A stretch of 32,000 nucleotides of DNA from assembly GCF_000179635.2 (NCBI RefSeq), contig NC_014824.1, positions 300,001 through 332,000 of the forward strand, given 5' to 3'. Positions 1 to 27,900 of this stretch are shown one piece after another; position 1 is the stretch's first letter, and every line of letters begins with the position of its first letter. The notes under the pieces were generated by a model, which had not been told where the DNA came from, did no database searches, and worked only from the letters and a program-made list of their open reading frames with translations. The position numbers and the translations under genes are program-made. The DNA is from Ruminococcus albus 7 = DSM 20455. Its GTDB lineage: Bacteria > Bacillota > Clostridia > Oscillospirales > Ruminococcaceae.

Positions 1-1
1 T

Positions 2-517: not shown

Positions 518-650
518 AAAAATCAGTTTTGCGTCAGCGGTGCTGCTTTTAATAAGATAAATATTCAATTATAATATTAACAGTATCAGTTTTTGGATAC
601 TTGGAGTAAAAAAAGAGTTACTATAATAATTAAAACAGGAGGAAGTAAAA

Positions 651-1361: not shown

Positions 1362-1374
1362 AAGGAGATAAACA

Positions 1375-1686
1375 ATGAATGATGTAAAAGAAGAAAAACT
1401 GGAATACTATCAATGCCTGAAACTTCTAGAATACCTCGTAGAGATCGGCTTGATACAGAAAAATCCCCAAATTCCGTCTGATATTCTCGTTTTTTGTGAG
1501 GGTAATGGAGAGGAATATCCTGAAGGATGGTATAGTGAAAATATTTTCGATGCAGCAAGAGATCTGGTCAATAAACCGGATGAACAGAGAATACTGCTTG
1601 ATGCCATCGAGGAAAAGGGATTTAAAAAGCCTGAACTTCCTAAATTTGAAACCGTAAGACTAGATGTAGAAAAATTCTTCAGCTAG
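1375..1686 (+). CDS. hypothetical protein (103 aa)
   Basis: ORF track; RBS gaAGGAGataaacaATG; tightly follows the upstream gene. Confidence 0.7.
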   Translation: MNDVKEEKLEYYQCLKLLEYLVEIGLIQKNPQIPSDILVFCEGNGEEYPEGWYSENIFDAARDLVNKPDEQRILLDAIEEKGFKKPELPKFETVRLDVEKFFS

Positions 1687-1706
1687 TATAGTAATTCATG
1701 ATTACA

Positions 1707-1735
1707 AAGCGTCTCTCTCAGGAGGACGCTTTTAT
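1707..1735 (+). terminator. intrinsic terminator, conserved cassette-terminator family
   Basis: Hairpin AGCGTCTCTCtcagGAGGACGCT followed by TTT. G-U pairs form only in the + strand RNA. Confidence 0.7.
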
Positions 1736-1775
1736 CTTTGGGGAAATTCTAGTATAATTCAGGTATAGGATTTAA

Positions 1776-1806
1776 TTGATAAACTGGAGGTCAGACAAGT
1801 TGTTGA
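1776..1806 (+). promoter_or_regulatory. conserved 5' leader hairpin (instance 1)
   Basis: ttgataaacTGGAGGTCAGACaagttgttga, 17 nt downstream of TATAAT (1753-1758). The 7 bp stem uses G-U pairs. Confidence 0.6.
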
Positions 1807-1861
1807 GATCAAATAATAAAGGTAAAAATCTATGACATAATTTCTAAACGGAGGATGAAAA

Positions 1862-2200
1862 ATGAAAATATTTACTGCTTATGATATAGACTGGGATGTT
1901 GATATTAATGAAATCTATGAAGCATTCGAAAAAATGACTATTTACGATGCAGCAAAAGAATTATGTATCACTGCAGATACGTATGCTGATATGAAAACGG
2001 TAGATAGACATGAAATTATACGTGATAAACTTTACCATAACAGAATTAATGCAGCTGAAATAGTAGGACTTCCCGATGAGGTAATAATTCCCGACTTTTT
2101 TGGATTGAAAAGCGAGAAAGATGATACTGGAGAAGTTACAGACTGGCTTTCAGACGAATATGGTTACTGCATTAATAATTACAAAGTAAAATATAGTTGA
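1862..2200 (+). CDS. hypothetical protein (112 aa)
   Basis: ORF track; RBS aaacGGAGGatgaaaaATG. Confidence 0.7.
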   Translation: MKIFTAYDIDWDVDINEIYEAFEKMTIYDAAKELCITADTYADMKTVDRHEIIRDKLYHNRINAAEIVGLPDEVIIPDFFGLKSEKDDTGEVTDWLSDEYGYCINNYKVKYS

Positions 2201-2213
2201 TTTCAATGACTCT

Positions 2214-2241
2214 AACACCTCGCTATGGCGGGGTGTATTTT
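2214..2241 (+). terminator. intrinsic terminator
   Basis: ACACCTCGCtatgGCGGGGTGT followed by ATTTT. Confidence 0.6.
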
Positions 2242-2279
2242 GTTGGTGAAGGTTTTCTTATATAATAGAATCAGATTAA

Positions 2280-2323
2280 TTGAGCGAAAATTTGGAGTCA
2301 TTAAGACCGAATATTTCGCTCAA
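2280..2323 (+). promoter_or_regulatory. conserved 5' leader hairpin (instance 2)
   Basis: TTGAGCGAAAa-tttGGAGTCattaAGACcgaat-ATTTCGCTCAA. The perfect 11 bp stem has a different sequence from other instances but the same loop motif. TATAAT at 2261-2266. Confidence 0.65.
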
Positions 2324-2359
2324 TTTCAAAATCTAACTATACTAAGGAGATTTTAAATT

Positions 2360-2896
2360 ATGGGTCAGTATTTTAAGGCAATTATGAAAACACTTAATGG
2401 AAAGAACGTTGTATTTAAAAATCCAAAAAATTATTTAAAATTAATGGAACATAGCTGGTACAAAAACACATTTGTAAATAGTATCACTGAATTGCTCTAT
2501 CATTCTCCGGCTCAAATATCATGGGTAGGAGATTATGCAGATAAAAACACTGAATCATACCGAATAGCTTATAATAAAAAGGCACAGACTATAATACCGG
2601 ATCCATCAACATTTAATCTTGACAATAAATTTCTGGTAAATCATTCAAAGAAAACATACATCGATATCAATAAATACAAAATGCTGTCTAAAGATCCTGA
2701 CGGAGAAATCGTTCACCCTCTGCCATTATTAACAGCGGAAGGAAACGGTGAAGGCGGCGGAGATTATTATTCAGAGTCACATTTTAATGATGTAGGTCTT
2801 TGGGCTATGGATCTTGTTTCTGTAGAAGATGAGATCCCAAATGGCTATTCTGAATTCGAAGTATTTTTCATAGAAAACTATTATAAAATAGGATGA
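2360..2896 (+). CDS. hypothetical protein (178 aa, starts MGQYFK)
   Basis: ORF track; RBS actAAGGAGattttaaattATG. Confidence 0.7.
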   Translation: MGQYFKAIMKTLNGKNVVFKNPKNYLKLMEHSWYKNTFVNSITELLYHSPAQISWVGDYADKNTESYRIAYNKKAQTIIPDPSTFNLDNKFLVNHSKKTYIDINKYKMLSKDPDGEIVHPLPLLTAEGNGEGGGDYYSESHFNDVGLWAMDLVSVEDEIPNGYSEFEVFFIENYYKIG

Positions 2897-3024
2897 ATGC
2901 TGTTATCCCAGATTATTTGGTCAATCGCTTCACAATTGTGGAGTGATTTTTTTATATAGTTTATACTCTTTTTTATTTATGCTTGTTTTCATATATAATA
3001 AATGTATAAAGGAGATGTACACTT

Positions 3025-3975
3025 ATGAAAATTAAAAAAATTACCATGGTGCTTTCAGTTGTGATTTCGGCGCTATTATGCTGTAATTTTGCAGGATACA
3101 GTTTTATAGAAGACGAGAACGTTCAATATACGAGTGAAAGCAATCCTGAAAGAATAAGCCCATTATCTTATAACATATCCTATTCATCAAAAGGATCATC
3201 AGACAGTTCATCCTTGAAAAAAATCAACAGTAATGATGATCCTCAAAAAGAAGAACCTGTATCTGTAATTGATATCACGGAGCCTTCTTTAAATGAAAGT
3301 TGTCAGGTTGTACCCGTTGATACCGGTGATAATGAATCTTCCTGTGATTCATCATGTGAAGAAAATAAGGAAGAAACGATTGTAGAAGAAAAAGCTCAGA
3401 AACCAGGATATACTATCATTACTGATATAATCGAGCTTGACACTTACATTTATAATCAGCTTGGCGGATCCATATATTCTTCTTCGTGATGTGGCCCGAC
3501 TTCAGCGGCCATGCTGCTGTCTTCAGAAAAAGGAATGGATATTTCTAAAGATGAGATTGTTGTAAATGCTTATGATAATGGTTTCTATTATGATGCAGGA
3601 ATAAATTTTACATCCGGAATGGGAGTCACACTAGAAAATATACAGGATCTTGTAAGCTATTACGGACAGGATTCCGAAATAGATCATTTATGGAATAATT
3701 CAAGTGAAGATATCATTTATACTATAAATGAAAAACTGAATGAAGGACACAGGCTTATATGCGGTCACAGAACTTTTAGCGGCACTCTTCATTATATAGT
3801 TATATACGGTAAATACTGTGAAAAAAACTGTATGTACTATAAAATAGTTGATCCGTGGGGCGGAACTGTTTATACTTGGGATCAGTGGACTCTTTCTGAC
3901 AGGATAATGAGTGTTGGCGGAGATGACGAATCGACTTTTGAAGGATGTGTAAAAGGATTATTGTGGCTTAAATGA
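3025..3975 (+). pseudogene. secreted papain-fold (peptidase C39-like) cysteine peptidase interrupted by one in-frame TGA (3487-3489)
   Basis: ORFs 3025-3489 and 3511-3975 are in the same frame. The sequence reads ...YNQLGGSIYSSS-TGA-CGPTSAAMLL..., giving the Gln / Cys-Gly-Pro / His (LHYIVIYG) / Asp (VDPWGG) order of C39-like peptidases. N-terminal signal peptide MKIKKITMVLSVVISALLCC. Confidence 0.6.
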
Positions 3976-4281
3976 TGGAGTGAATAATCCCGATCTGTGG
4001 CAGTACTTTTAGGACGACTTCTGAATAGTTATGTATAATTAAGCGCACTAAACTTCGATTTAGTGCGATAATACCGTGTGAAATTTAATGATGAAAAGCA
4101 ATTGCTGGAAAGCGATTCTCCTGTTCAAAACTGAAAACTTATGTAATTGCGGTTCTCATAGGAGGAAATTTTTTGTTTCGTTAGGGAAGTGCCACGAAAA
4201 TCAAAACGATAACAAAAAAAATCGGTCAATCAATAATTCATAAGAGAAAAAACGCTTTTATACTATTAGAAAATTTTTCTC

Positions 4282-4310
4282 TTGCATTATAACTTCATAT
4301 ATGTTATAAT
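4282..4310 (+). promoter_or_regulatory. sigma-70-type promoter upstream of scaffold RNA A1
   Basis: TTGCAT, 17 nt spacer, TATAAT. Confidence 0.5.
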
Positions 4311-4368
4311 GACTATAGAAAATCAATTTCATTGATCAGTAATACAGGGCGAATGATAAGCTCACGTT

Positions 4369-4507
4369 AAAATGCTGGGAGATTCGCACTTTATTTCGGG
4401 CGGCTCGGCGTCCGTAAATCGAGAAGTGCTCGTAAGTCTACAAATCTGTAGCCGAAGTAACTCTCGATAAGGTAAAAGCAATACACATTCAATCCGTGTA
4501 TTCAATT
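4369..4507 (+). ncRNA. structured scaffold RNA, copy A1 (tracrRNA/omega-RNA-like), directly upstream of CRISPR array 1
   Basis: Positions 4379-4526 differ from 13585-13732 by one nucleotide. Helices: GGGCG/CGTCC (4398-4413), ATCGAGA/TCTCGAT (4418-4424 with 4462-4468), CTACA/TGTAG (4438-4451), ATACAC/GTGTAT (4481-4501). The same architecture recurs with compensatory changes at 15853-15975. Confidence 0.6.
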
Positions 4508-4526
4508 TTATTTGTATAATTATGCA

Positions 4527-4824
4527 GATGCAATCTGTACAGGCAGGTAAATTGCGAGCAGCCATATCCTTTATCAGCCGTCCGCCGCATTCGGGGATGC
4601 AATCTGTACAGGCAGGTAAATTGCGAGGTGTAAAAGCCGTCAACATAAAAACCACTACTAGATGCAATCTGTACAGGCAGGTAAATTGCGAGAACAGACG
4701 TACAGTTTCAAGGGCGATTGAGATAGATGCAATCTGTACAGGCAGGTAAATTGCGAGAAGTCATTTGCAACAGAGATTTTATTAAAGTGGAGGATGCAAT
4801 CTGTACAGGCAAGTAAATTACAAA
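4527..4824 (+). CRISPR. mini-CRISPR array 1: 4 identical 32 nt repeats plus 1 degenerate terminal repeat, 4 spacers (37, 33, 33, 35 nt)
   Basis: Repeat GATGCAATCTGTACAGGCAGGTAAATTGCGAG at 4527, 4596, 4661 and 4726. Degenerate copy at 4793-4824. TTTGTATAAT promoter-like element at 4511-4520 immediately upstream. Confidence 0.9.
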
Positions 4825-4854
4825 AAACGAATTAAAAATTTTCCATCGAAAACC

Positions 4855-4883
4855 TTGACAGGGCCTACTTTATGATGTATAAT
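4855..4883 (+). promoter_or_regulatory. consensus sigma-70 promoter with no obvious ORF
   Basis: TTGACA, 17 nt spacer, TATAAT exactly. Followed by hairpin CTTGttaATAAGAAG...CGTCTTATctttCAAG (about 4907-4944) and a T-run near 4963-4972. Confidence 0.5.
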
Positions 4884-5010
4884 ATTATTAAAGTCAAATT
4901 AACTTGTTAATAAGAAGTACCGTTCGTCTTATCTTTCAAGTGTCATTTGGCTTTTATTTTTTTGCAATCTTTTCGGCTTCAGAAGTCTTCATATTATAAT
5001 AGTATCATAA

Positions 5011-5068
5011 CCAAGATCGTTTAACTGCCTGCAGCAATTGGAGCTGTAGAGACAAAAACAGATCTTGG
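5011..5068 (+). promoter_or_regulatory. conserved 5' leader hairpin (long-stem instance 3), followed by a T-run
   Basis: CCAAGATC...tTGGAGCTGTAGAGACAAaaaca...GATCTTGG then CTTTTTTT. TATAAT at 4994-4999. Confidence 0.5.
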
Positions 5069-5151
5069 CTTTTTTTATTGTAGTAAATTTTCTCCTATAA
5101 TAAAAATACAACATTCAAACAAATGGTAAGAAAAAGAAAGGAAATGTAAAG

Positions 5152-6264
5152 ATGAACAAATTCGGAAAGATCGTATCCTCGCTGACAGCACTGATGATAT
5201 TGGGGAGTACATTCACAGTAAATGCAGGCGCTGAAACTTTTTATACAAAAGGGGATATAAACAACAGCGGCACAGTAAATATTACGGATATCATTAAGAT
5301 AGCTTCTCATATAAAAAGCAAAAAAATGCTTAGTGAAGAGCGAAATGATATACTTGTACCGTATACAACACTCTGGGCTGCCGATGTCAACAGGGATGGA
5401 AAACTCAATATAACTGACATCACTACAATAGCGGCTCAAATAAAGAACGTAAAAAGTATTAGTAGCAGCACTAATGCATTTAAAAATGTAAGAAAACTAA
5501 CGACTCCTACCGAAACTGATATTATCGCTAGAGCACTCAGACTTACCGAAGCTAATCTCAAATACTACTCACCTAATGAGCCCAGAAAATATGATTTCAC
5601 AAAAGGAAACGACAAAGCTGAAAAAATCATCCTTAAAGAAGGAATAGACTGTTCGGGTATAATAAATTATGCTCTGGGTACACTTGGAATAGAAACAGAA
5701 GGTCTTCGTGGATCAAGCAACACTAATGCTGCACAATTTGGATATACTCCGGCAGCAACAGGTGACTGGCTCAATAAATATAACGTAATAAAGCCTGTAA
5801 AGAATGCTTATTGGATCGTTGACGGAACAAAGAAACCGATGAAAGTGCTGAAAAACGGTGTTTCTACCTCAAAACAGAAGTATTATCAGTACGGGAAGAA
5901 TAATGATATAATTCCTGTGGGTTCTATTGTCGTTGCCTTTGCTGAAGATAATAAAGGAAACCGCATGGCTAATGCAGATCATATGTGGCTGTATCTGGGC
6001 GAATACAACAATGCAAATGAAGTTAGAAAATACATAGCTTCACTGACAGATAAGGCTCCTGGGGATATTATGACCAGGATAGGCTCACAGAAGATAGGAT
6101 ATAATAGCAACAACAGCGATAATGACGGAAAACACTGGAGACTTGAAAGCACGGGTACTTGGCACGGTTTTGATAACTTCACCGGACCGCAGATAAATAA
6201 TGACCTTTGTAATAACACAAAAACACAGTATCTGATCTATGTTTTTGCCCCGCCCACTTTTTGA
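5152..6264 (+). CDS. secreted dockerin-containing NlpC/P60-family peptidase
   Basis: Signal peptide. Two dockerin repeats (GDINNSGTVNITDIIKIASHIK, ADVNRDGKLNITDITTIAAQIK). NlpC/P60-type GIDCSGIINYALG Cys motif and ADHMWLYLG His motif. Confidence 0.8.
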   Translation: MNKFGKIVSSLTALMILGSTFTVNAGAETFYTKGDINNSGTVNITDIIKIASHIKSKKMLSEERNDILVPYTTLWAADVNRDGKLNITDITTIAAQIKNVKSISSSTNAFKNVRKLTTPTETDIIARALRLTEANLKYYSPNEPRKYDFTKGNDKAEKIILKEGIDCSGIINYALGTLGIETEGLRGSSNTNAAQFGYTPAATGDWLNKYNVIKPVKNAYWIVDGTKKPMKVLKNGVSTSKQKYYQYGKNNDIIPVGSIVVAFAEDNKGNRMANADHMWLYLGEYNNANEVRKYIASLTDKAPGDIMTRIGSQKIGYNSNNSDNDGKHWRLESTGTWHGFDNFTGPQINNDLCNNTKTQYLIYVFAPPTF

Positions 6265-6276
6265 TAGCGTATAATT

Positions 6277-6294
6277 TGTGTCACGCGTGATACA
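6277..6294. repeat. palindrome family copy P1 (TGTGTCACGCGTGATACA)
   Basis: One mismatch to TGTGTCACGCGTGACACA. Lies 13 nt after the stop codon of 5152-6264. Confidence 0.8.
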
Positions 6295-6439
6295 AATAGA
6301 CCAACTAATAGAACAACTGAATGATAGCACTGGTTGGTGTATCATTTGTTCTATTGGTTGGTTTATTGTTTTTGTTTCATTTCTATGACGTATTATATCT
6401 TCTTGTATTTTCAAATATAATCTATTCAGGAATATTCAT

Positions 6440-7461
6440 CATGGTTATCCCTTTAACACACCACAGATAATTTACAATGCTGTCCAAATAAACAGACCTC
6501 AAAACTCAGAAAATATAGTATAATAGTGACAGAAACCGAAGGGAGCTGTCGCTATGTCAAAAAGATTTCCGAAACCTGAGATCACACTTGATGGGATATA
6601 CTCAAAGTTCGCAGATGAAAGCTTTTGCAAGGATTTTCTGCTTGATATCCGCTTTGAAAAGGGTTTTGCCTGCCCGTTTTGCGGTGGCTCTGAGTACCGC
6701 AGGATAAGGTCACGCCATCTGCTGCGATGCAAGTTCTGTAAAGCAGATATATCCGCCACAAACGGAACTTTTATGCACAGAACACATATTCCGCTCAGAC
6801 TGTGGATAGTCACCGCATTCCTCATTATGAGCAACAAATGCAGCGTTTCTGCTGTTACGCTGATGAGGTCTTTGGGGGTGACCTACAAGACTGCATGGTA
6901 CATCCTTCATCGCATCAGAAAAGCTATGAAATGCCGTGAAGAACGCTATTTGCTTGACGGGATCGTTGAACTTGATGACACGTATCTCGGTGCTCCGACT
7001 CACGGTAAAAAGCGTGGCAGAGGAACTGAAAAAGTCAAGATGATAGTAGCTTTGTCAAAGAACGCAGCAGGAAATCCCGAGTACGTTAAAATGAGCGATG
7101 TGCCGAATTTAAAGGGTATAACTGTTGGTAGATTTGCCAGGGATAATATCCGCGCAGGCTCGAAGATCGAGAGTGATAATGCTCGAAGTTACAAGAAACC
7201 GTTGGCACAGAAATACTTCCATGTTTTTGAAACATATGATCCGACAAGCGGTCAGCTGAACTGGATGCATAAAGTTATATCAAACTTCAAAGCAATGATC
7301 ATGGGAACTTACCACGGAAACGAAAAGATCCACACAGCGTTATATGCTGCCGAATACTGCTACAAATTCAACCGTCGTAAGCTGGGAAACAGTGCGTATT
7401 TAAGGCTTTTGGCTGCTTTGGTGCAGTGATCTTACTTGTGGTGTGTTAAAGGGATAACCAT
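6440..7461 (+). mobile_element. IS1595-family insertion sequence with target-site duplication
   Basis: 24 bp terminal inverted repeats ATGGTTATCCCTTTAACACACCAC (6441-6464; reverse complement at 7438-7461). Flanked by direct repeat AATATTCAT (6431-6439 and 7462-7470). Confidence 0.85.
6554..7429 (+). CDS. IS1595-family (ISXO2-like) DDE transposase
   Basis: N-terminal zinc-ribbon CPFCGG...CKFC, then IPLRLWIVTAFLIMSNK and VELDDTYLG, as in IS1595 transposases. Confidence 0.8.
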   Translation: MSKRFPKPEITLDGIYSKFADESFCKDFLLDIRFEKGFACPFCGGSEYRRIRSRHLLRCKFCKADISATNGTFMHRTHIPLRLWIVTAFLIMSNKCSVSAVTLMRSLGVTYKTAWYILHRIRKAMKCREERYLLDGIVELDDTYLGAPTHGKKRGRGTEKVKMIVALSKNAAGNPEYVKMSDVPNLKGITVGRFARDNIRAGSKIESDNARSYKKPLAQKYFHVFETYDPTSGQLNWMHKVISNFKAMIMGTYHGNEKIHTALYAAEYCYKFNRRKLGNSAYLRLLAALVQ

Positions 7462-7469
7462 AATATTCA

Positions 7470-7500
7470 TTGATAGCTTGGAGGTCAGACAAGTTGTTGA
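7470..7500 (+). promoter_or_regulatory. conserved 5' leader hairpin (instance 4)
   Basis: ttgatagctTGGAGGTCAGACaagttgttga. Its promoter (TATAAT 6414-6419) is displaced about 1 kb by the IS1595 insertion. Confidence 0.6.
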
Positions 7501-7550
7501 TAATACTTTCAAAATACATATCGAAGAAGATAAAAAGGAGCTTAAGAATT

Positions 7551-8138
7551 ATGAACGAAGTAAAAAACGAAATATCTGAATGGAAGGGATATTCTTTTGA
7601 ATTCAGAAATGACGCATATGAAGTCAAGGTACGTAATCTTGAAATCGAACAGGATGAATACACTGTTTTTCTTTATGCAGATGATATCAAAGTGGAGAGA
7701 AACGGCAGTGAGATGACAGAAAAAGATTTTGGAACGACGTGGTCGGGACGGAAAATGACAGAAAAAGATTTGCTGCAGCAGTCACTTGCTCTTTACGTCA
7801 ACGGTGTGAAAGATTTTTCTATGCATGAAAGTCTGGACGAATTGGATATCGTATATAATAAGCTACATGAAAAGGGAAGAATCAAAGATATTAATGAAGC
7901 TTATCTTACTCCGGATGGTCACATCTTGCATCTTCAGTTTGTAACTGAAAACAGTATCGGTTATGTAGGAGTTGATGATCTTTGTGTTGCCATTCGTGCA
8001 GATACAAAAGAGTCTATCACAGATATTGAATTCTTCTACGAACAATTGGTATACGACCTTGTGAAGGAAAATACAGCATTCATTTATCAGACCGAGGAGT
8101 TAAAGGAATGGATCAAAACTTTCGAAACGGAGGAATAA
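7551..8138 (+). CDS. hypothetical protein (195 aa)
   Basis: ATG at 7551 with RBS aaAAGGAGcttaagaattATG. The longer ORF-track start at 7470 runs through the leader motif. Confidence 0.65.
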   Translation: MNEVKNEISEWKGYSFEFRNDAYEVKVRNLEIEQDEYTVFLYADDIKVERNGSEMTEKDFGTTWSGRKMTEKDLLQQSLALYVNGVKDFSMHESLDELDIVYNKLHEKGRIKDINEAYLTPDGHILHLQFVTENSIGYVGVDDLCVAIRADTKESITDIEFFYEQLVYDLVKENTAFIYQTEELKEWIKTFETEE

Positions 8139-8140
8139 AC

Positions 8141-8509
8141 ATGGAAATCACCGAAGATAAAATAGTATATGGTAAAAATACCTTTACAATAGTAAATGAA
8201 GTTCCTGATGGATATAAAATATGGAATATAGGTCCTTATATGCTGAAAGGATTCATTCCGCTGTGCCGGCTAAAACAAGAACTTTTGCAAAAAGGACTAT
8301 ATGTAATAGAAAAAGATTGTCTATTAGCAATAAAGTCAGAAGGATCAGATAAGATAATGGCTGCGATAGGCGGAGGATATCATACGGTAGCTTTAATGGA
8401 AAAATTCTTGTCAGATAACCCAGAGCCGAAAAAAGATTCCTGGGAAGCTAAACAGGTATCACGGATAAATGCAGCATTGCCTTATATGAAAAAGATTAAA
8501 GGACTGTAA
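8141..8509 (+). CDS. hypothetical protein (122 aa)
   Basis: ATG at 8141 after acGGAGGAataaac; abuts the upstream stop codon. Confidence 0.65.
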   Translation: MEITEDKIVYGKNTFTIVNEVPDGYKIWNIGPYMLKGFIPLCRLKQELLQKGLYVIEKDCLLAIKSEGSDKIMAAIGGGYHTVALMEKFLSDNPEPKKDSWEAKQVSRINAALPYMKKIKGL

Positions 8510-8528
8510 GAATAACAAGGAGGAAAAA

Positions 8529-8801
8529 ATGTCGAAGATCTATAGAGTTCCCGTATATTATCAAGTGAGTGAATACGTTCCGGTGAAGGCTTTTTCTAAA
8601 GAAGAAGCAATAAAGTATGTAAGAGACCACCAGGACAAAATACCTACCCATTGCGGAGATGCCAATTATATCGATGAATCTTATGAGATAGAGTCTGATC
8701 CCGATGTTGTTTTGGGGTGTGATGAAAAATCAGGACTCTGGGAAAGGGAAGCATGGAACAATGAATATTATGATGCAACAAAGGAGAATAAAGATGGATA
8801 A
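8529..8801 (+). CDS. hypothetical protein (90 aa)
   Basis: RBS caAGGAGGaaaaaATG. Confidence 0.7.
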   Translation: MSKIYRVPVYYQVSEYVPVKAFSKEEAIKYVRDHQDKIPTHCGDANYIDESYEIESDPDVVLGCDEKSGLWEREAWNNEYYDATKENKDG

Positions 8802-9602: not shown

Positions 9603-11552
9603 GTGAATATAAACATAAAGTCAAAAAGAATAATTGCAGGTGTAATGGCACTTTCAATCGTATCTTCTGGTGCAATTGCATCTGAGTCAAGCGTGATAGG
9701 CAGATTAATTTTATTAAATTCGCTCTCTGCAAGTGCCGGTACTGTTTATGGTGACTGGGAATATGAAGTAACCGGAGACCACACTGCAAAGCTAGTAAAG
9801 TATACCGGCAGCGATGCAGAAATTAGTATCCCTCAGGGCATTGACGGTCATTCGATAACAGAACTTGGTGAAAATCTGTTCAGTAATAATACTAATATCA
9901 AGTCTGTAAAGATCCCCAGAGGTATCCAGAGCATACCCGGTTACTGTTTCTCAAATGCTTCAAATCTGGAATCGGTGGTAATGCCTCTCGGCGTAACAAA
10001 AATCGAGCGCGGGGCTTTTATGAATGCAAAGAGCCTCACATCAATAGCGCTGCCTCTTTCTGTTGATACCATTGAAAGCTCTGCATTTACCGGCTCGGGA
10101 ATAACTTCCATTAACATGCGGGATGTTAATGAGTTCGGCAAAAGAATTTTTACAGACTGTAAAAACCTTAAAGATGTGGTGCTTCCCGATGGCATTACAA
10201 TAATTCCCGAAAGTACATTTGAAAACTGCATCGGCATAGAGTCCATCATCCTTCCTGATGACCTGATCACTATTGAAAAGAACGCTTTCAAAGGCTGCAC
10301 AAACCTTACAGAGATAAACGCACCCGATTCGTTGACGACTATAAAAAATTCTGCTTTCATGAATTGCTCAAAGCTTAAAAAAACTCCTTGTTCAGAATCA
10401 ACGGTTTCAATTGAATTCGCTGCATTTAGAAACTGCACAGGCCTTGAATCTGTATCATTCTCAAACTCACCTACTTCGATAGGATCGTATGCTTTTGCAG
10501 GCTGCGAAAAGCTTGAATATATCTCCATTCCCGACTCAGTAGAGAAGATTGATTCAGATGCTTTCAGCGAATGTAAAGGTATCAGGTCGATAGATCTTGA
10601 TGTTAATTCAGCTACTAAATTCGGCGGATACTGTTTCAAAGGCTGTTCTTCAGTAGAAAATATAAATGTTTCCGATTTTGACATTCTGGCAGGATTGTTC
10701 GACAAAAGAACATTTTCAGGCTGCAAAGAGCTACGTACAATAAACAATGAAAGTCCCGTTATTCTTAACGGCGATAACACTGAGCCTGAGTTTACAGAAA
10801 AGTACAGAAGTGTTATAATAGAGAATTTTGATGCCATTGACGACAGTGAGCTGGGTTTCTTCAATGACTACCTTGAAGCAGAAGTAAAGTACGTTGTATC
10901 CACAAATATAACCGATGATATGTCCGATATGGAGAAGATAAAAACTCTTCATGATTGGCTCTGTAACAAGGTATTCTATAAATATATCAAGAAAAACAGC
11001 AAGTATACTCCTGATACCAGCAATTATACTCAGGTGGATTCGTCTGCATTTATCAGAAATTCAACTGTATGCGCAGGCTATGCCAAAGCACTTACACTTT
11101 TGCTCAATGAATCTGGTGTAGAAGCATATCTTCTTGTAAATTTCAGCGAACATGCATGGTGTATGGTTAGAGTTGGAGACCATTATTTTCATCTTGATGC
11201 AACACATGATGATTCAGGCTCTGATCCAAACGGTACCATAGGTTATGATCACTTCCTTATCTCGGATACCGATGTAAAAAAATGCTCTTCAGGTCATTCG
11301 AGCTGGGCGATCGATGCGCCTACAAGCCGATATAAATACACTATTCCCGACGAAATCCCCAAATGCCTCTATTCGGTAGGAGATGTAAATAAGGATGGTG
11401 TCATCAACGATGATGATGCCGACCTTATCTGGTATTACTGCAACGGCGATATCGGCTCCATAGACCTTGTTCTCGCAGATACAAACTTCGACGGCAAAGT
11501 TGACTGGGATGATTACCTGGCAGCGCTCAAACGCAAATTGCCCCGAGGATAA
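9603..11552 (+). CDS. secreted leucine-rich-repeat (BspA-type) protein with transglutaminase-like cysteine peptidase core and C-terminal dockerin
   Basis: GTG start after tAAGGAGtaatttaacc; signal peptide. Repeated ...I.IP..V..I...AF..C..L... units. VCAGYAKALTLLL...HAWCMVRVGDHYFHLDATHDD (Cys-His-Asp). Dockerin GDVNKDGVINDDDADL / ADTNFDGKVDWDDY. Confidence 0.8.
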   Translation: MNINIKSKRIIAGVMALSIVSSGAIASESSVIGRLILLNSLSASAGTVYGDWEYEVTGDHTAKLVKYTGSDAEISIPQGIDGHSITELGENLFSNNTNIKSVKIPRGIQSIPGYCFSNASNLESVVMPLGVTKIERGAFMNAKSLTSIALPLSVDTIESSAFTGSGITSINMRDVNEFGKRIFTDCKNLKDVVLPDGITIIPESTFENCIGIESIILPDDLITIEKNAFKGCTNLTEINAPDSLTTIKNSAFMNCSKLKKTPCSESTVSIEFAAFRNCTGLESVSFSNSPTSIGSYAFAGCEKLEYISIPDSVEKIDSDAFSECKGIRSIDLDVNSATKFGGYCFKGCSSVENINVSDFDILAGLFDKRTFSGCKELRTINNESPVILNGDNTEPEFTEKYRSVIIENFDAIDDSELGFFNDYLEAEVKYVVSTNITDDMSDMEKIKTLHDWLCNKVFYKYIKKNSKYTPDTSNYTQVDSSAFIRNSTVCAGYAKALTLLLNESGVEAYLLVNFSEHAWCMVRVGDHYFHLDATHDDSGSDPNGTIGYDHFLISDTDVKKCSSGHSSWAIDAPTSRYKYTIPDEIPKCLYSVGDVNKDGVINDDDADLIWYYCNGDIGSIDLVLADTNFDGKVDWDDYLAALKRKLPRG

Positions 11553-13416: not shown

Positions 13417-13443
13417 ATCCTTCCTGCCATGATCTGTCCTGTA

Positions 13444-13477
13444 AAACATCTCTCTTTTTTGGAGGGATGTTTTTTTA
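13444..13477 (+). terminator. intrinsic terminator, conserved family
   Basis: AAACATCTCTCttttttgGAGGGATGTTTTTTT. Confidence 0.75.
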
Positions 13478-13506: not shown

Positions 13507-13535
13507 TTGAATTATAGATGTATTTGTGTTATTAT
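13507..13535 (+). promoter_or_regulatory. sigma-70-type promoter upstream of scaffold RNA A2
   Basis: TTGAAT, 17 nt spacer, TATTAT. Confidence 0.45.
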
Positions 13536-13574
13536 AAATACAGGAAAACTCGTTGCGAATGGCAAGCTTACATA

Positions 13575-13713
13575 AAAATGCCAAGAGATTCGCACTTTAT
13601 TTCGGGCGGCTCGGCGTCCGTAAATCGAGAAGTGCTCGTAAGTCTACAAATCTGTAGCCGAAGTAACTCTCGATAAGGTAAAAACAATACACATTCAATC
13701 CGTGTATTCAATT
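13575..13713 (+). ncRNA. structured scaffold RNA, copy A2, directly upstream of CRISPR array 2
   Basis: Positions 13585-13732 equal 4379-4526 except A13684 versus G4478. Confidence 0.6.
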
Positions 13714-13732
13714 TTATTTGTATAATTATGCA

Positions 13733-13900
13733 GATGCAATCTGCACTACGCAAGTGAATTGCGAGTTCGGCGTTGCTGCTTGATGAATCGGGCACTATCG
13801 ATGCAATCTGCACTACGCAAGTGAATTGCGAGGTATATTAATTTGTACAAAAGCAGTCGAACACTTTGTTGCAATCTGTACTACGCAAGTGAATTGCGAG
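13733..13900 (+). CRISPR. mini-CRISPR array 2: 3 repeats of 33 nt, 2 spacers (34 and 35 nt)
   Basis: Repeat GATGCAATCTGCACTACGCAAGTGAATTGCGAG at 13733 and 13800. Variant with 2 substitutions at 13868. Confidence 0.8.
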
Positions 13901-13966
13901 TGATTATCTTCATACTTTTCCATTCAAAAATATGCTTACAAAAATGATCACAAAATAATCTTTATA

Positions 13967-13991
13967 GACAGCTTAACGCCCTAAAATCGAG
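13967..13991 (+). repeat. isolated copy of the scaffold 5' hairpin module (copy E)
   Basis: GACAGCTTAACGCCCTAAAATCGAG, compare GGGCGACTTAACGTCCTAAAATCGAG at 17469. Preceded by AAAATGATCACAAAATAATCT, which also occurs at 17568-17589. Confidence 0.45.
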
Positions 13992-14124
13992 AAAATATTT
14001 TGCAAATTTATCAACGAGATACTACTTCATTCGTATATGATTTCAAGTGTTTTGAATGTAACGATGGCGGTAAGTGTGAAATCTGTCGTATCAAGCGGTA
14101 AAATGAATATTAAAGGAGTGCGCT

Positions 14125-14745
14125 ATGGCTGTTAAAAAGAAACTCCCTGCCTTAAAAAGGCTCATCAAGAAAATCGAAAAGGTCACGCACGTCCGTCCCG
14201 CTACGGAAGAGGAGCTTGCGGCTTTACAGAAGCTTGCAGGCGGAAAGCTCCCCGAGGAGGCTATGGAATTTTACTCACATTACAGTTTTGAGGGTATTGT
14301 GCGCATTGATGAGTATATTGATCTCTACGGCATTAACGAAATAGTCAGATGGAATACAGACGCTGTACCCGGGTTTATGGTTCTGCCGTTCGGACTTCTG
14401 ACCGTGGCTTCATGGGTAGACGGTGATGCAATCTGCATTGACCTTAACAGCGTTGGTGAAAAGTTTGGGTATGGGGGATGTTACACCACGCAGGTGATTC
14501 GTCAGTGCAGTCATGAACTTTTCAGCGAGGGCGAGGAGATCACCTTCTACAGAAAAGCACTCGGCGGTTTGGTTCGCCTGCCTTATACCCGTGAGAATGT
14601 CGTTGCGCTTTCTCCTTATGTAACCAATGACTTCAGTTATCTTCTCAAACGCCTGAGAGATGGGGAGCTTCGTTATATCGAACTTACCAAAACATTGGAT
14701 GATTACGAGAAAAAACGATTGCAGGAAACTGCTCAGGAAAGTTAA
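14125..14745 (+). CDS. SMI1/KNR4 (SUKH-1)-like protein, putative immunity protein
   Basis: RBS tAAAGGAGtgcgctATG. The N-terminal LPEEAMEFYSHYSFEG region resembles the SMI1_KNR4 signature. The segment is visibly more GC-rich than its flanks. Confidence 0.5.
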   Translation: MAVKKKLPALKRLIKKIEKVTHVRPATEEELAALQKLAGGKLPEEAMEFYSHYSFEGIVRIDEYIDLYGINEIVRWNTDAVPGFMVLPFGLLTVASWVDGDAICIDLNSVGEKFGYGGCYTTQVIRQCSHELFSEGEEITFYRKALGGLVRLPYTRENVVALSPYVTNDFSYLLKRLRDGELRYIELTKTLDDYEKKRLQETAQES

Positions 14746-15852: not shown

Positions 15853-15975
15853 GGGCGGCTTAACGCCCTTAAATCGAAACAATGCGTCGTAAACCGCTAT
15901 ACAGCGTTGATCGTATACTCGATAAGGTAATATCTCAGCAATGAGATCAAAATTATACGCATAAAATCCGCGTAG
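15853..15975 (+). ncRNA. structured scaffold RNA, copy C, upstream of the Cas12f/TnpB-like gene
   Basis: Same helix order as A1/A2 with compensatory changes: GGGCG/CGCCC (15853-15868), ATCGA/TCGAT (15873-77 with 15919-23), CGCT/AGCG (15895-15906), TACGC/GCGTA (15956-15974) with conserved loop A-AATCC. It has one extra hairpin, ATCTCA/TGAGAT (15932-15947). Confidence 0.55.
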
Positions 15976-16072
15976 ACAGTGAACATAACTATATAAGAAT
16001 GTGAGCTGTAAGTTATATAATGATATTGGAGTATTGATGTGTCCTTCAAAAAAATCTTAAGGAGTAATAAAA

Positions 16073-17434
16073 ATGACTAAAGTAGTAAAATTAGCGTTAA
16101 TAAGCAATGTAACCGATAAAGATGGAAACAAAGTTGAATACAATGAATTAAACAGATGCCTATGGGATCTTCAAAAAGAAACCAGGGACCTGAAAAATGC
16201 TGTAGTAAGAGAATGCTGGGAATGGTACGGATTCACCAACGATTATTATAAACTTAACGAAGAATATCCGAATGAAAGAGATTATCTGAAAAAGGCAAAG
16301 TCTGACGGAACGATTAAAGATTATGCTTTGGATGGATTTATATATGCTAAATACAGCAAAAAATACAATCTTCATTCAGGAAACTATTCACAAACATTAA
16401 GAGACGCCTGCGGAAGCTTTAAAAATAATCTCAAAGAAATATTAAGAGGAGATAAGAGCATTTTAAGTTATAGAGCCGATCAGCCTCTGGATATCAAGAA
16501 GACCTGTATCGGACTGGAATACGATAAGGACACAAACACTTATTATGTAACTCTTGTTCTGCTAAACAAAAATGGCGTCAAGCATTATAATATCAGTGAT
16601 TTCAGATTTAAGATAACCGTAAAGGATAATTCAACAAGAACGATCCTTGAACGTTGTTTTGATGGAGTATACGGCATAAGCGCAAGTAAGCTTATCTGGA
16701 ACAGAAAGAAGAGTCAGTGGTTTTTAAATCTCTGCTATTCATTCGATAAAGTAGAGGTAAAGGAACTTGACAAGAAAAAGATACTGGGAGTAAATCTCGG
16801 TGTTTACTACCCTTTATACGCTTCAATATCCGGAGAAAAGGATAGACTAGCGATCTCTGGTGATGAAATAATCGAATTCAGGAAACGAATAGAGGCTAGA
16901 AGGACAGCTCTGAAGAAACAGGCTGCTGTGTGCGGAGATGGAAGGATAGGTCATGGTTATAAAACCAGGATGAAACCATTACAGAATGTCTCTGATAAGA
17001 TAGCAAATTTCAGAGATACCTTTAATCACAAAGCAAGTAAAAAGCTAATTGATTTTGCAATCAAAAATGATTGTGGGATCATCCAGCTCGAAAATCTTAA
17101 AGGAGTAACAAAAAATTCAGAAGGATTCCTCAAAAACTGGTCTTTTTATGATCTTCAGAGTAAGATCGAAAATAAGGCGAAAGAAAGAGGGATAAAAGTT
17201 GTTTATATTGAACCTGCTTACACAAGCCTGAGATGCTCAAAATGCGGATGTATACACAAAGATAATCATCCGACCAGAGAGCAGTTTATCTGTCAAGAGT
17301 GTGGGTATAGGGTTCTGCATGATTACAATGCCAGCCAGAACATTGCTGTCAAGGATATAGACAAGATAATAAAAGCTGAACTTGAAAAGACGGAACCGGA
17401 AAAGAAAACAGAGGAAGAAAAGCCCGAGAAGTAA
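16073..17434 (+). CDS. miniature Cas12f/TnpB-like RuvC protein (453 aa) with Asn at the RuvC-I catalytic position
   Basis: RBS tAAGGAGtaataaaaATG. RuvC-I context KKILGVNLGVYYP (N241, AAT 16793-16795, where the family has GxDxG). RuvC-II IIQLENLKG (E340). Zinc finger CSKCG...CQECG. RuvC-III HDYNASQNIA (D417). GDGRIGHGYKTRMKPL resembles the Gly/Arg/Lys-rich linker I recall from Cas12f. Confidence 0.8.
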   Translation: MTKVVKLALISNVTDKDGNKVEYNELNRCLWDLQKETRDLKNAVVRECWEWYGFTNDYYKLNEEYPNERDYLKKAKSDGTIKDYALDGFIYAKYSKKYNLHSGNYSQTLRDACGSFKNNLKEILRGDKSILSYRADQPLDIKKTCIGLEYDKDTNTYYVTLVLLNKNGVKHYNISDFRFKITVKDNSTRTILERCFDGVYGISASKLIWNRKKSQWFLNLCYSFDKVEVKELDKKKILGVNLGVYYPLYASISGEKDRLAISGDEIIEFRKRIEARRTALKKQAAVCGDGRIGHGYKTRMKPLQNVSDKIANFRDTFNHKASKKLIDFAIKNDCGIIQLENLKGVTKNSEGFLKNWSFYDLQSKIENKAKERGIKVVYIEPAYTSLRCSKCGCIHKDNHPTREQFICQECGYRVLHDYNASQNIAVKDIDKIIKAELEKTEPEKKTEEEKPEK

Positions 17435-17468
17435 GTTCATGTAAAATAATGTGATGATAATATTTTTA

Positions 17469-17589
17469 GGGCGACTTAACGTCCTAAAATCGAGGCGATT
17501 AATCCTGATTGCTGACTAAAGGCTGGCAGGCAATAAAGCTGCGTTATCCGTTGTATGCAGAAGAATAAAAACGATCACAAAATTAATCT
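17469..17589 (+). ncRNA. partial or diverged scaffold copy D plus repeat-like remnant, 3' of the effector gene
   Basis: GGGCGacttaaCGTCCTAAAATCGAGG starts 35 nt after the stop codon, preceded by TGATGATAAT (-10-like). Contains GGCAGGCAATAAAGCTGCG, which resembles repeat 1 (GGCAGGTAAATTGCGAG). Ends with AAAACGATCACAAAATTAATCT, shared with the trailer of array 2. Confidence 0.4.
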
Positions 17590-21831: not shown

Positions 21832-23157
21832 TTATGCTGTTTGAGCGATAAATTCCGCATTCAGGTTAACTAAGGTAGAGAACGTGCAGGTGCTTCTCTT
21901 ACTGCATTGAGGTACTTTAGCCTCAATGAGCAACCTTGAATTCTCATCCAAGGATTTTAATATTTCACGTATGAAGTATCTTGCCCCTATATTATACGAA
22001 GCAGATAGATCGCAGTTGTAGGTCTTGCCATTTTGAAATTTGCATAGCTCATAGGTATTGAAACCACCGAATTTACCACGAAGTACAAAACCACTGCCAT
22101 CGTATGCAAGGCGTGACGTATTCCATGCACAGATATGGCTTACTCTCATACCTAGTCTGTGAGCTTTATTCGTTACAATAGACTGAACTTCCTGACTGCG
22201 CCACAGCTTGAGCTTCTGCTTTTTAGAACCGCGGACCTTACCGTTCTTGTCTAAATGCTCAAATACAATAACATCTGCATTATAAAGAACGGCTATATCT
22301 ACGATGCAGGCAGCAGTTTTAGTGGCAATGTCGTGATTGATTCCTTTGGCTTTTGCCCAAAGCCTTGGTGTTTTATAGTTACCATGCTGCTGAGCTTTTT
22401 TTATACGGTTAATGCTATGCATCAGATGGTCTGTTTCTTTGGTAAGCTTACAAAAATGCCTTCCAAGAATAGTGCCATCTGAACGCATTACGGAAACCGT
22501 AGCTGCGGTGTTGATCCCAAGGTCTACAGCAACAATGGTCTGCTCATACACAGATATATCTGCCAGTTTGACCTTTTCCTCAAACGGAAAGTCCAAAAAC
22601 CACTTCTTGCCTCGTTTTTGAAGTGTTGGAGCGCATTCCTTGCGAAACCTGCAATATCTGTATATATAATCCATATCAGACTTTTTAAGGTTTATAGTTA
22701 TCCAGTCCCATGTATTACGGATATAGACTTTGATCTGGGCAGTATAATCACCGGTCTGATTGTACATTACTGTACGATACATAGACGGGAATGAATAACC
22801 TGCTTTTGGATACGATGGTTCTCTGCCTACAGAATCTTTGATCCAGTTATCGAAATTGCTTTTGTAAGATGATACCTTGCCTATAGCCTCGTTAATAGCA
22901 CCACGGCGCAGATAGCTTGGCATCTTATAGAATTTGGCATCAAAATCATAAATTGGATCGGGATTATCTTTTGTAGCATGGATCAGTGTTTCAATATATG
23001 TGAGTCTACTCACCCCTTTGAATGTAACAATGTTATCCCAATGATCCAGACAAACGCTGATAAGGTAATCTACAGCATGTCTGTATTCGATAACGGTATC
23101 TTTGAAAATGTTGTTGTAATGCTTGATCTTAACGCTGTATGTCGTATATATCTGCAT
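21832..23157 (-). CDS. tnpB: TnpB-like RNA-guided endonuclease (441 aa), RuvC triad intact
   Basis: RBS AAGGAGGG upstream. RuvC-I IVAVDLGINTAA, RuvC-II VIVFEHLD, RuvC-III YNCDLSASYNIGARY. AWNTSRLAYDGSG replaces the usual CxxC zinc finger. Confidence 0.8.
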   Translation of the reverse strand: MQIYTTYSVKIKHYNNIFKDTVIEYRHAVDYLISVCLDHWDNIVTFKGVSRLTYIETLIHATKDNPDPIYDFDAKFYKMPSYLRRGAINEAIGKVSSYKSNFDNWIKDSVGREPSYPKAGYSFPSMYRTVMYNQTGDYTAQIKVYIRNTWDWITINLKKSDMDYIYRYCRFRKECAPTLQKRGKKWFLDFPFEEKVKLADISVYEQTIVAVDLGINTAATVSVMRSDGTILGRHFCKLTKETDHLMHSINRIKKAQQHGNYKTPRLWAKAKGINHDIATKTAACIVDIAVLYNADVIVFEHLDKNGKVRGSKKQKLKLWRSQEVQSIVTNKAHRLGMRVSHICAWNTSRLAYDGSGFVLRGKFGGFNTYELCKFQNGKTYNCDLSASYNIGARYFIREILKSLDENSRLLIEAKVPQCSKRSTCTFSTLVNLNAEFIAQTA

Positions 23158-23350: not shown

Positions 23351-23621
23351 AACAGAATTCAAATTTTCTTTTTATGAGGTTTAAGATGCAGAAAGACAGC
23401 TAATCTTACTCACTTAGATGTCTTTCACTTAAGAATTATAGTATTTGACATTCTTAAGTGAGGCTTACAGTTTACAAGACGAAGTATATGATCAGGACTT
23501 CTGTATTTGGTAGTTCTTACGATATGGTATTACAATGAATATACATACCCTCGACCATGCACAACAGAATGTCTAGAAATGCCGCCTAACTCATGACTAA
23601 AGTCACGAGCGTGCAGCGGCA

Positions 23622-24176
23622 AAATCGTCAAAGTACGAAATTGAAGAGTACGGCTATTGGAACAATACAGATGAGCCAGACGGAATCACAAATGAGGAAT
23701 GGAAGAATTGTGGAGATGACTGGGACGCAGCATTACCCGGTTTAGGCGTCCCTTCAAGATGCGGTCTGTGTTCTTCCGATCTTATCGATCCTGATGTTCT
23801 ATTTTCCGAAATAAAAATGGCTGAGGATGGAAGAATGAGGAAAATTATAAATGATTTTTCACTATTAAAATACGTTCATGCGTTAGTTTGCGATAAAACT
23901 ATAAGCCACTTTGTAAAGATGGACAGTGAGTATGATGAAAAACTGTCATCGACTTATGCTTTAGTGGTAAAATACAGAGAAAAAATAGAAAAAGACGATC
24001 CTCAGATGAAGGATTATGCGGATAAGCTTGAAAACGAGATGATAGAACAGATATCGGACCGTTCCATAGAAGAAATACTATCTGGAAGCATACTCGAACT
24101 ACTACCGAAATATACAAGCTATAAAAAAATGCGGAATGAAGGAGGAAATGATTATGATAATCAAGTATCATCATAA
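23622..24176 (+). pseudogene. 3' fragment of the gene split by the TnpB element
   Basis: The frame is open upstream of the ORF-track ATG (23817), back to about 23622: ...KSSKYEIEEYGYWNNTDEPDGITNEEWKNCGDDWDAALPG... Confidence 0.55.
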
Positions 24177-27717: not shown

Positions 27718-27900
27718 TAATACACCTTCTTTTTTCTATAATATAATTATACTAGATTTTTTTCTAATGGGAAAAAATTTTTTCTTGCTGTCGTTTTTAT
27801 TACTCTAAATTTTCTGCTATTATATGATTGCATTTGTAATAATAAAAAATAAGGGAATGCATAATCTGATAATACACAGGAAAACGAAAGGATGATTTTT

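Follow-up and report, generated by a model that had tools for sequence, protein, structure and literature searches.

A tracrRNA and mini-array cassette of Ruminococcus albus 7 that probably forms a stand-alone guide unit of a type V-F1 CRISPR-Cas12f1 system

Organization of module 2 and its paralogue

The window analysed here is a stretch of 32,000 nucleotides (nt) from Ruminococcus albus 7 (contig NC_014824.1, positions 300,001 to 332,000), on the plus strand of which two paralogous units, referred to as modules 1 and 2, each consist of a structured RNA scaffold followed by a short CRISPR array. A gene for an effector of the Cas12f1 family lies downstream of module 2. The focus of this study is module 2 (13507–13966), which we consider, with a probability of about 0.72, to be a transcription unit in its own right, encoding guide RNA of a miniature CRISPR-Cas12f1 system of type V-F1 (former V-U3), the scaffold being its putative trans-activating CRISPR RNA (tracrRNA). 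The features of both modules and of the effector gene are as follows:

13443–13473, plus strand: intrinsic-terminator-like hairpin of the preceding gene, forming the upstream boundary of module 2
13507–13535, plus strand: promoter-like site with the hexamers TTGAAT and TATTAT 17 nt apart, the latter (–10) preceded by TG
13555–13732, plus strand: predicted module 2 tracrRNA, family A (covariation in 18 modules; minimum free energy (MFE) fold with z = –3.3)
13555–13593, plus strand: stem 1 of this tracrRNA
13604–13619, plus strand: hairpin hp1, with loop CUCG at 13610–13613
13624–13629 with 13669–13674, plus strand: long-range stem AUCGAG/CUCGAU, enclosing a hairpin at 13644–13657
13687–13707, plus strand: further hairpin
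13708–13732, plus strand: A/U-rich, anti-repeat-like tail
13733–13900, plus strand: mini CRISPR array of module 2 (R1 13733–13765, R2 13800–13832, R3 13868–13900)
13766–13799 and 13833–13867, plus strand: spacers 1 and 2 of this array
13901–13966, plus strand: trailer region of module 2, with TTTTCCATTCAAAA similar to the module 1 trailer
4349–4824, plus strand: module 1, the paralogous family-A unit (tracrRNA 4349–4526)
4527–4824, plus strand: module 1 array (five repeats, the last one degenerate, and four spacers)
16073–17434, plus strand: Cas12f1-family effector of 453 amino acids, with Asn241 at the RuvC-I catalytic position and Glu340, Asp417 and the zinc ribbon kept

Both modules carry tracrRNAs of what is here called family A (i.e., with loop CUCG and repeats ending in CGAG). 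Alignment revealed a single mismatch (A13684 versus G4478) over the 148 nt shared by 13585–13732 in module 2 and 4379–4526 in module 1, exactly as an initial annotation of this DNA had reported. Its further observations that identity drops upstream of this block and that the downstream repeats differ were borne out as well: 22 of 30 positions are identical in 13555–13584, just upstream of the block, and identity amounts to ca. 61% in the promoter/leader, 85% between the repeat consensus sequences and 53% in the trailer. The promoter-like site of module 2 is homologous to the region upstream of module 1 at 4257–4322 (77%, ungapped).

The module 2 array consists of three 33-nt repeats (starting at 13733, 13800 and 13868, the third carrying two substitutions) and two spacers of 34 and 35 nt, in agreement with the repeat count and spacer sequences given initially, and these lengths lie within the ranges by which an array was recognized (repeats of ca. 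32–37 nt, unique spacers of ca. 33–39 nt). The module 1 repeat measures 32 nt and differs from that of module 2 in its central part. In module 2, tracrRNA and array are on the same strand, with repeat 1 starting without a gap after the tracrRNA.

A covarying tracrRNA fold with a loop-tail pseudoknot

A total of 18 distinct scaffold-plus-first-repeat sequences, taken from the window and from loci encoding relatives of the effector (designated by L numbers), were aligned and examined via RNAalifold and explicit pair counting. The alignment supported hp1, the long-range stem AUCGAG/CUCGAU together with an inner stem, and two further hairpins, one with loop AAUCC and one within the repeat. Over the 32 pairs, 95.8% of the cells were paired, versus 24–53% when the partners were slid, and 19 pairs displayed double-sided changes, a result matched by none of 500 shuffles. 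Stem 1 at the 5′ end (GCGAAU...AUUCGC) is present in many modules and also occurs as the compensatory variant GCGGAU...AUCCGC, while the self-hairpin of the repeat is kept by compensation as well, with U12-A23 in module 1 corresponding to C12-G24 in module 2.

Moreover, the four bases of the hp1 loop pair with the final four bases of the repeat, adjoining the spacer, and every module 2 repeat ends in CGAG, complementary to the hp1 loop. This pseudoknot helix is 100% paired in the 18 sequences and covaries at two positions (UA/CG/UG and AU/GC/GU/UA), yielding the following combinations:

hp1 loop CUCG with repeat tail CGAG: window modules 1 and 2, L019, L020, L024 and L025
hp1 loop CUCA with repeat tail UGAG: L028
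hp1 loop CUUA with repeat tail UAAG: most other modules
hp1 loop CUUU with repeat tail AAAG: L001
hp1 loop CUUG with repeat tail CAAG: L010

Another CUCG, located at 13549–13552 upstream of stem 1 and used in the MFE fold, was rejected as partner of the repeat tail in favour of the hp1 loop, because it is absent from module 1 and from the other modules.

Because of its covarying fold, its loop-tail pairing with the repeat and its Cas12f1-family context, the scaffold is, judged from sequence, a type V-F1 (former V-U3) Cas12f1 tracrRNA; an Rfam search with it returned no family at E ≤ 1. For the AsCas12f guide RNA a short repeat:anti-repeat contact termed R:AR-2 has been described, to which the helix of hp1 loop and repeat tail corresponds by analogy. 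While this short contact is present with covariation, the counterpart of the long duplex (R:AR-1) is weak in the window: the intermolecular anti-repeat:repeat duplex of the module 2 tracrRNA amounts to –10.0 kcal/mol with the module 1 repeat and –8.8 kcal/mol with the module 2 repeat, and the cognate duplexes in L003, L024, L007 and L009 to –24 to –28 kcal/mol. Folded alone, the segment 13545–13765 reaches –60.6 kcal/mol (z = –3.3), and in its MFE fold repeat 1 is paired in cis to the A/U-rich 3′ tracrRNA end, with a 7-bp hairpin spanning the junction. This predicted fold is that of a natural single guide.

Module 2 would be read into one primary transcript, in which tracrRNA, repeat 1 and spacer 1 would fold in cis into a natural single-guide RNA. 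The later repeat-spacer units would make use of tracrRNA supplied in trans, for which the 4-bp pseudoknot and protein would be the main hold; anti-repeat and repeat form only a weak duplex in this case. A Cas12f1-family dimer could then read the 5′ part of the spacer against DNA.

Modules as duplicating units

The sampled loci with effectors that, like the one in the window, have Asn at the RuvC-I position (Asn-type loci) each hold two to six modules, some of them kilobases apart between unrelated genes, and each module in the relatives comprises a tracrRNA directly followed by two to six repeats. Matches to the tracrRNA profile were distributed as follows:

L001: 6 (5 full, 1 fragment)
L003: 4
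L006: 3
L007: 3
L009: 3
L010: 2
L032: 3
R. albus 8 contigs: 1–2 per contig

In the related strains represented by L021–L023, which are 93–97% identical to window positions 1–8801, module 1 is found at the same site with different spacers, and the segment of ca. 12.35–23.6 kb that holds module 2 and the effector is lacking. The segment with module 2 and a neighbouring SUKH gene is likewise lacking from R. albus 8, so that the comparison with related strains proposed in the initial annotation finds module 2 missing at the corresponding place in both cases. The effector cassette from 15081 onward is common to four independent assemblies, the upstream parts of which differ, and the orthologues of module 1 sit in contigs without an effector within 3.6–7 kb.

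The core of window module 1 differs at three to four positions from its orthologues in L021–L023 and at only one from module 2, with which it shares derived bases (A at 4440/13646 and A at 4518/13724). Since these near-identical cores are embedded in diverged flanks (53–77% identity), the sequence comparison points to module 2 being a diverged paralogue of module 1 whose core was homogenized by gene conversion or copied very recently between the older paralogues. This concerted evolution, together with the two to six units per relative and a spacer that two L003 modules have in common, supports the earlier suggestion that modules are duplicated or recombined as units.

Family-B tracrRNA pieces and the trailer

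The tracrRNA profile search of the window yielded five copies, all on the plus strand, i.e., full copies at 4398, 13604 and 15853 and fragments at 13971 and 17469. The 15853 copy and both fragments constitute family B, with loop CUUA and a UAAG tail; the family-B tracrRNA is 79% identical to the tracrRNAs flanking an 84%-identical effector in L006. The motif GCTTAACGCCCTAAAATCGAG is found at 13971, 15858 and 17474 with at most two mismatches; these three occurrences, in a count allowing up to three mismatches, compare with zero expected (100 shuffles). The following pieces belong to this family or lie next to it:

13967–13996, plus strand: family-B tracrRNA 5′-end fragment (loop CUUAAC plus AAAAUCGAG; 5′ arm degenerate)
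15853–16012, plus strand: family-B tracrRNA (loop CUUA) joined to a degenerate half repeat that has UAAG at its end; it immediately precedes the effector gene and lacks an array
17469–17520, plus strand: family-B tracrRNA 5′ fragment (hp1 plus a few bases), downstream of the effector
17568–17589, plus strand: trailer-like A-rich sequence AAAACGATCACAAAATTAATCT

The initial annotation placed an isolated 5′ hairpin of the module 2 scaffold at 13967–13991. The motif indeed recurs, but 13967–13996 is unable to fold as a hairpin (its 5′ arm reading GACAG instead of GGGCG) and belongs to family B. The trailer, stated to lie at about 13943–13963, is actually positioned at 13941–13961, and its reported recurrence at 17568–17589 holds for the 16-mer core AAAATGATCACAAAAT (13941–13956; one mismatch plus a 1-nt indel) but not for the full 21-mer, of which the window contains no second ungapped copy within three mismatches. 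The best local homology of the trailer region pairs 13955–13991 with 17457–17494 (a score reached by none of 200 shuffles) and consists of the hairpin piece and the sequence just before it. The argument that trailer and hairpin were permuted between module 2 and the effector locus is therefore weak: because the hairpin remnants belong to family B, they mark a junction between two families and not a permuted module 2.

Intact counterparts of the module at 15853–16012 occur in L006 and R. albus 8. Similar fusions of a tracrRNA to a half repeat lie upstream of Asn-type genes in the window (15853–16012), L006 (287–500) and L032 (4523–4700); having lost the anti-repeat and the 5′ repeat half, they represent a natural single-guide-like form. 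The sequence following the half repeat at 16013 was rejected as a guide, since it aligns with the effector 5′ untranslated region in L006 and L012 and is most simply an array trailer. Of the module at 17469 the remainder has been lost, whereas L006 keeps an intact module at the same position. In independent assemblies of the same effector cassette, some 128 extra bases follow the downstream hairpin fragment (L015 2424–2553, between window positions 17500 and 17493), which are absent from the window.

Targets and adaptation

To look for phage and plasmid targets, spacers or trailers (8 from the window, 52 from relatives) were concatenated into a single query, IMG/VR was searched by exact seeds, and the fetched loci were compared all against all. 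Apart from the shared L003 spacer, this last comparison only yielded a partial self-match in L009, where the spacer at 13988–14021 matches a gene of its own locus (2888–2911) over 24 nt with one mismatch, in its repeat-distal part only; this may be a partial self-target. The module spacers had no match in the window itself.

No Pfam match to Cas1, Cas2 or Cas4 was found in the 30 open reading frames (ORFs) of the window or in the gene tables of the relatives, and the window holds no Cas1-sized or Cas-like ORF aside from the effector. As adaptation genes are missing, spacers must come from recombination or from the Cas1-Cas2 of another system.

The neighbouring effector

The effector matches Pfam Cas12f1-like_TNB (PF07282, 1e-19) and, over residues 21–435, the AsCas12f structures 8J12, 7WJU and 8DZJ at about 1e-95 (best 1.8e-95). 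It is 52% identical to the experimentally tested RuCas12f1, 100% identical to R. albus 7 protein ADU24010.1, and its gene is 98.9% identical at the nucleotide level in four metagenome assemblies. In the alignment, its Asn241 falls opposite Asp225 of AsCas12f, which the dead construct 7WJU carries in mutated form, so that the RuvC triad reads N241-E340-D417 and the complete D-E-D triad is not present. At this position Asn occurs in 15 and Asp in 105 of 120 homologues, Asn being found in all homologues that are 64–100% identical to the window effector, and no compensating clade-specific acidic residue was detected in the Asn-type proteins among these 120. All five tested V-U3 enzymes have Asp. 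In nucleases of the RuvC/RNase H fold, changing Asp to Asn at the catalytic position strongly reduces or abolishes cutting. Nevertheless, conserved altered catalytic sites can stay active (PMC10691335).

All nine sampled Asn-type loci are multi-module, while all seven Asp-type loci (L019, L020, L024, L025, L028, L029 and L033) hold a single module directly behind the gene, in a small sample without phylogenetic independence. Around Asn-type loci, the genes encountered include those for ParA/ParB, topoisomerase, MuF, zeta toxin and YodL. In L001 (10001–12907), an Asn-type effector of 454 amino acids lies beside a 331-amino-acid Asp-type paralogue lacking the N-terminal 122 residues, and both genes are interleaved with modules of two tracrRNA families.

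A tentative reading of these sequences, which we hold to be rather unlikely, is that the Asn-type clade (the window effector, P0002–P0011, P0015 and others) would be a naturally nuclease-impaired RNA-guided DNA binder borne by plasmids and conjugative elements, programmed by many recombining, independently transcribed tracrRNA-mini-array modules and acting in plasmid-plasmid or plasmid-host conflict. If true, the clade would bind rather than cut, making it a Cas12f counterpart to type IV or Cas12m systems. In a linked reading, the family-A modules 1 and 2 may be guide-only satellites that program a different, Asp-type Cas12f1 of the host. Joint action of Asn- and Asp-type paralogues is also conceivable, given that Cas12f works as an asymmetric dimer, and the side-by-side genes in L001 hint at it.

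Partner effector and alternative explanations

The identity of the partner effector is the least certain step of the explanation. On present sequence comparisons we slightly favour, at roughly even odds, an Asp-type Cas12f1 that is encoded elsewhere or has been lost. The family-A tracrRNA is 80, 79, 77 and 76% identical to the tracrRNAs of L019, L020, L028 and L024, respectively, all of which lie directly downstream of Asp-type effectors, versus 61–70% identical to those of Asn-type loci. Moreover, the CUCG/CGAG pair occurs, among the sampled loci, only in the window modules and in Asp-type loci, and the Asp-type effector of L019 shares 97% identity with P0069, a protein encoded on an R. albus chromosome. 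The link to the effector at 16073 that the initial annotation implied is thus not established, the module 2 tracrRNA being closest to those beside Asp-type Cas12f1.

A less probable but still serious alternative is that modules 1 and 2 are satellite guides of the adjacent Asn241 effector, which would then use both tracrRNA families. Module 2 lies only 2.1 kb from this gene on the same strand, and dispersed modules, some kilobases off the gene, are what the nine Asn-type loci display and the seven Asp-type loci do not. In addition, L001 mixes two tracrRNA families within one locus, and the tracrRNAs of Asn-type L003 lack an extra stem, like those of family A. The Asn241 effector has also been kept intact, yet the family-B modules are without real spacers, so that modules 1 and 2 would be its only source of guides. 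Against this stand the lower tracrRNA identity to Asn-type loci and the absence of the CUCG/CGAG pair from those sampled, as well as the module 1 orthologues without a nearby effector. Furthermore, in L001, where two tracrRNA families occur as well, there are also two effector genes: an Asn-type gene and a truncated one of Asp type. The distant TnpB-like ORF at 21832–23157 (minus strand) was rejected as a partner, being unrelated to the Cas12f effector (22% identity over 174 amino acids, weak PDB matches).

Several observations weigh against module 2 as a guide unit and against its assignment to an Asp-type partner. For the 6 window spacers and 40 spacers of relatives, no protospacers were found in phage and plasmid collections, IMG/VR or the fetched loci, and as a consequence no protospacer-adjacent motif was derived. 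The anti-repeat:repeat duplex in the window is no better than with shuffled repeats, and module 2 was seen in none of the independent assemblies. As to the partner, the window contains no Asp-type effector, nor does the P0069 cluster include one from R. albus 7, while the several dispersed modules typical of Asn-type loci, and an adjacent effector left without an array of its own family, favour the neighbour as user. The CUUA/UAAG pair also occurs in Asp-type L033, so that the loop type is not a clean effector marker and was rejected as a strict one. As R. albus 7 can be grown in culture, both partner and activity are accessible to direct tests.

It is rather improbable that module 2 is a decaying relic of guide-module recombination that is no longer transcribed or used. 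Such decay would fit its mere two spacers without targets found, its mutated third repeat and weak anti-repeat complementarity, the broken family-B fragment adjoining it, its lack in related strains and the partly decayed state of the neighbouring effector locus itself. However, its tracrRNA core is intact and the same as that of module 1 save for one linker base, a compensatory change has preserved the repeat hairpin, hp1 loop and repeat tail remain complementary, and the promoter-like site is still present.

An assembly artefact (i.e., a collapsed or chimeric repeat) is very improbable. A near-identical block of 148 nt is the type of repeat that short-read assemblers can mis-join, and the lack of an independent assembly with module 2 would agree with this, but the flanks are homologous yet different, the spacers differ, the block has one internal difference, and the repeat variants differ with internally consistent compensatory changes. 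Furthermore, three independent metagenome contigs confirm module 1, and the finished genome of R. albus 7 encodes an identical effector. Equally remote is an omega-RNA or the end of an IS200/IS605 TnpB transposon, as suggested by the 'TnpB/transposase' annotation of the effector family in databases (transposase in PHROGs): the repeats are regularly spaced with unique spacers, the scaffolds lie 2.3 kb upstream of the gene or at other intergenic sites without overlapping its 3′ end, TnpA is not adjacent, the same site has different spacer content between strains, and the closest solved structures are CRISPR Cas12f1. An RNA anti-CRISPR or solitary repeat unit was rejected, as a full tracrRNA and spacers of normal length are present.

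Genomic surroundings

A phage origin of the region was rejected, since it shows no similarity to 50,697 phage records and has no IMG/VR relatives; its context of dockerin, SUKH and insertion sequence (IS) genes and the identity of the effector to an R. albus 7 protein also argue against it. PLSDB returned no match to the region. The replicon is very probably an R. albus 7 megaplasmid, and presumably pRUMAL01, which we take to carry ADU24010.1. Three genes for dockerin-bearing proteins (5152–6264, 9603–11552 and 27892–29841) lie around the modules, which fits the dockerin genes reported on R. albus 7 plasmids (PMC4081043), and a SUKH-type immunity-like gene lies near the modules at 14125–14745.

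A palindrome of 20–22 nt, TTTGTGTCACGCGTGACACAAA or close variants of it, resembles a shared operator and is found in seven intergenic regions in front of gene cassettes (6274, 11660, 15589, 17639, 19313, 23330 and 26913), and cassettes end in similar G+C hairpin terminators (9301, 12361, 15450, 21016, 24362 and 25597). An IS1595-family insertion at 6438–7464 (DDE transposase gene 6554–7429, 33-nt inverted ends) is missing in L021–L023. At 26178–26776, an Rfam STnc490 match (53.3 bits, just below the gathering score of 56) precedes an IS200-type Y1 transposase gene (26300–26776). The segment of 12.35–23.6 kb is missing or inverted in related strains, the contigs of which end or rearrange at the border of the TnpB-like ORF (ca. 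23525–23631).

Comparison with known systems

The closest known systems are those of type V-F1 (former V-U3, 'C2c10') Cas12f1, e.g., AsCas12f1 (7WJU/8J12) and RuCas12f1 (Karvelis et al. 2020, PMC7229846), with which module 2 and its neighbour share a homologous compact effector, the lack of cas1/cas2/cas4, a tracrRNA beside a short array with the repeat 5′ of the spacer, and a multi-stem tracrRNA with a short second repeat:anti-repeat contact adjoining the guide. Published V-U3 systems are likewise without adaptation genes and have their tracrRNA beside the array (PMC7229846). In contrast to described V-F1 loci, which have one tracrRNA between gene and array, several tracrRNAs, each with a mini-array and a putative promoter of its own, are located kilobases apart here, the region combines two tracrRNA families, anti-repeat pairing is weak, and the neighbouring effector has Asn instead of the catalytic Asp of the tested enzymes.

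Nuclease-dead Cas12f/TnpB regulators were compared as well, i.e., dCas12f-sigmaE (PMC12259090), TldR and the scenario of Altae-Tran et al. 2023 (PMC10691335). Shared with these are an alteration of the RuvC site within the Cas12f1 branch, multiple guide units in a locus, and the fusion of a tracrRNA to a half repeat (15853–16012, L006 and L032), as in the route back to single guides proposed for exapted regulators. Unlike in the dead regulators, only one of the three catalytic residues is changed here, the protein is full length without C-terminal truncation, true arrays with diverse and strain-variable spacers are kept, and the hosts are plasmids or conjugative elements of Firmicutes instead of Bacteroidetes chromosomes. 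Among the window neighbours there was no Pfam match to regulator partner genes (sigma factor/rpoE, HTH, flagellin/fliC, opp/oppF).

Orphan or mini arrays on mobile elements, type IV systems and Cas12m resemble module 2 in their small arrays, their lack of adaptation genes and their plasmid-like replicons, and possibly also in an effector encoded elsewhere and interference without cutting. They differ in that each array here has its own tracrRNA and the effector family is Cas12f1.

The components themselves (V-F1 Cas12f1, tracrRNA and mini-array) are already known, and surveys have pointed to Cas12f branches with altered catalytic sites. Our literature search brought up no account of tracrRNA-array cassettes that are multiple, dispersed and separately promoted, nor of concerted evolution among them, nor of the Asn-type Firmicutes clade treated here. 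While Cas12f1 is described as one gene with one tracrRNA and one array, the guide part would here be an autonomous cassette of promoter, tracrRNA and few spacers that multiplies, disperses, exchanges sequence and can sit far from the effector, an architecture linked to a clade, borne by mobile replicons, in which a catalytic residue is changed. As such, it would be a tangible example from nature of an intermediate step between dual-RNA arrays and the arrays of fused single guides that have been proposed for exapted Cas12f/TnpB regulators, with the covarying loop-tail pseudoknot providing a simple rule for pairing tracrRNAs with repeats.

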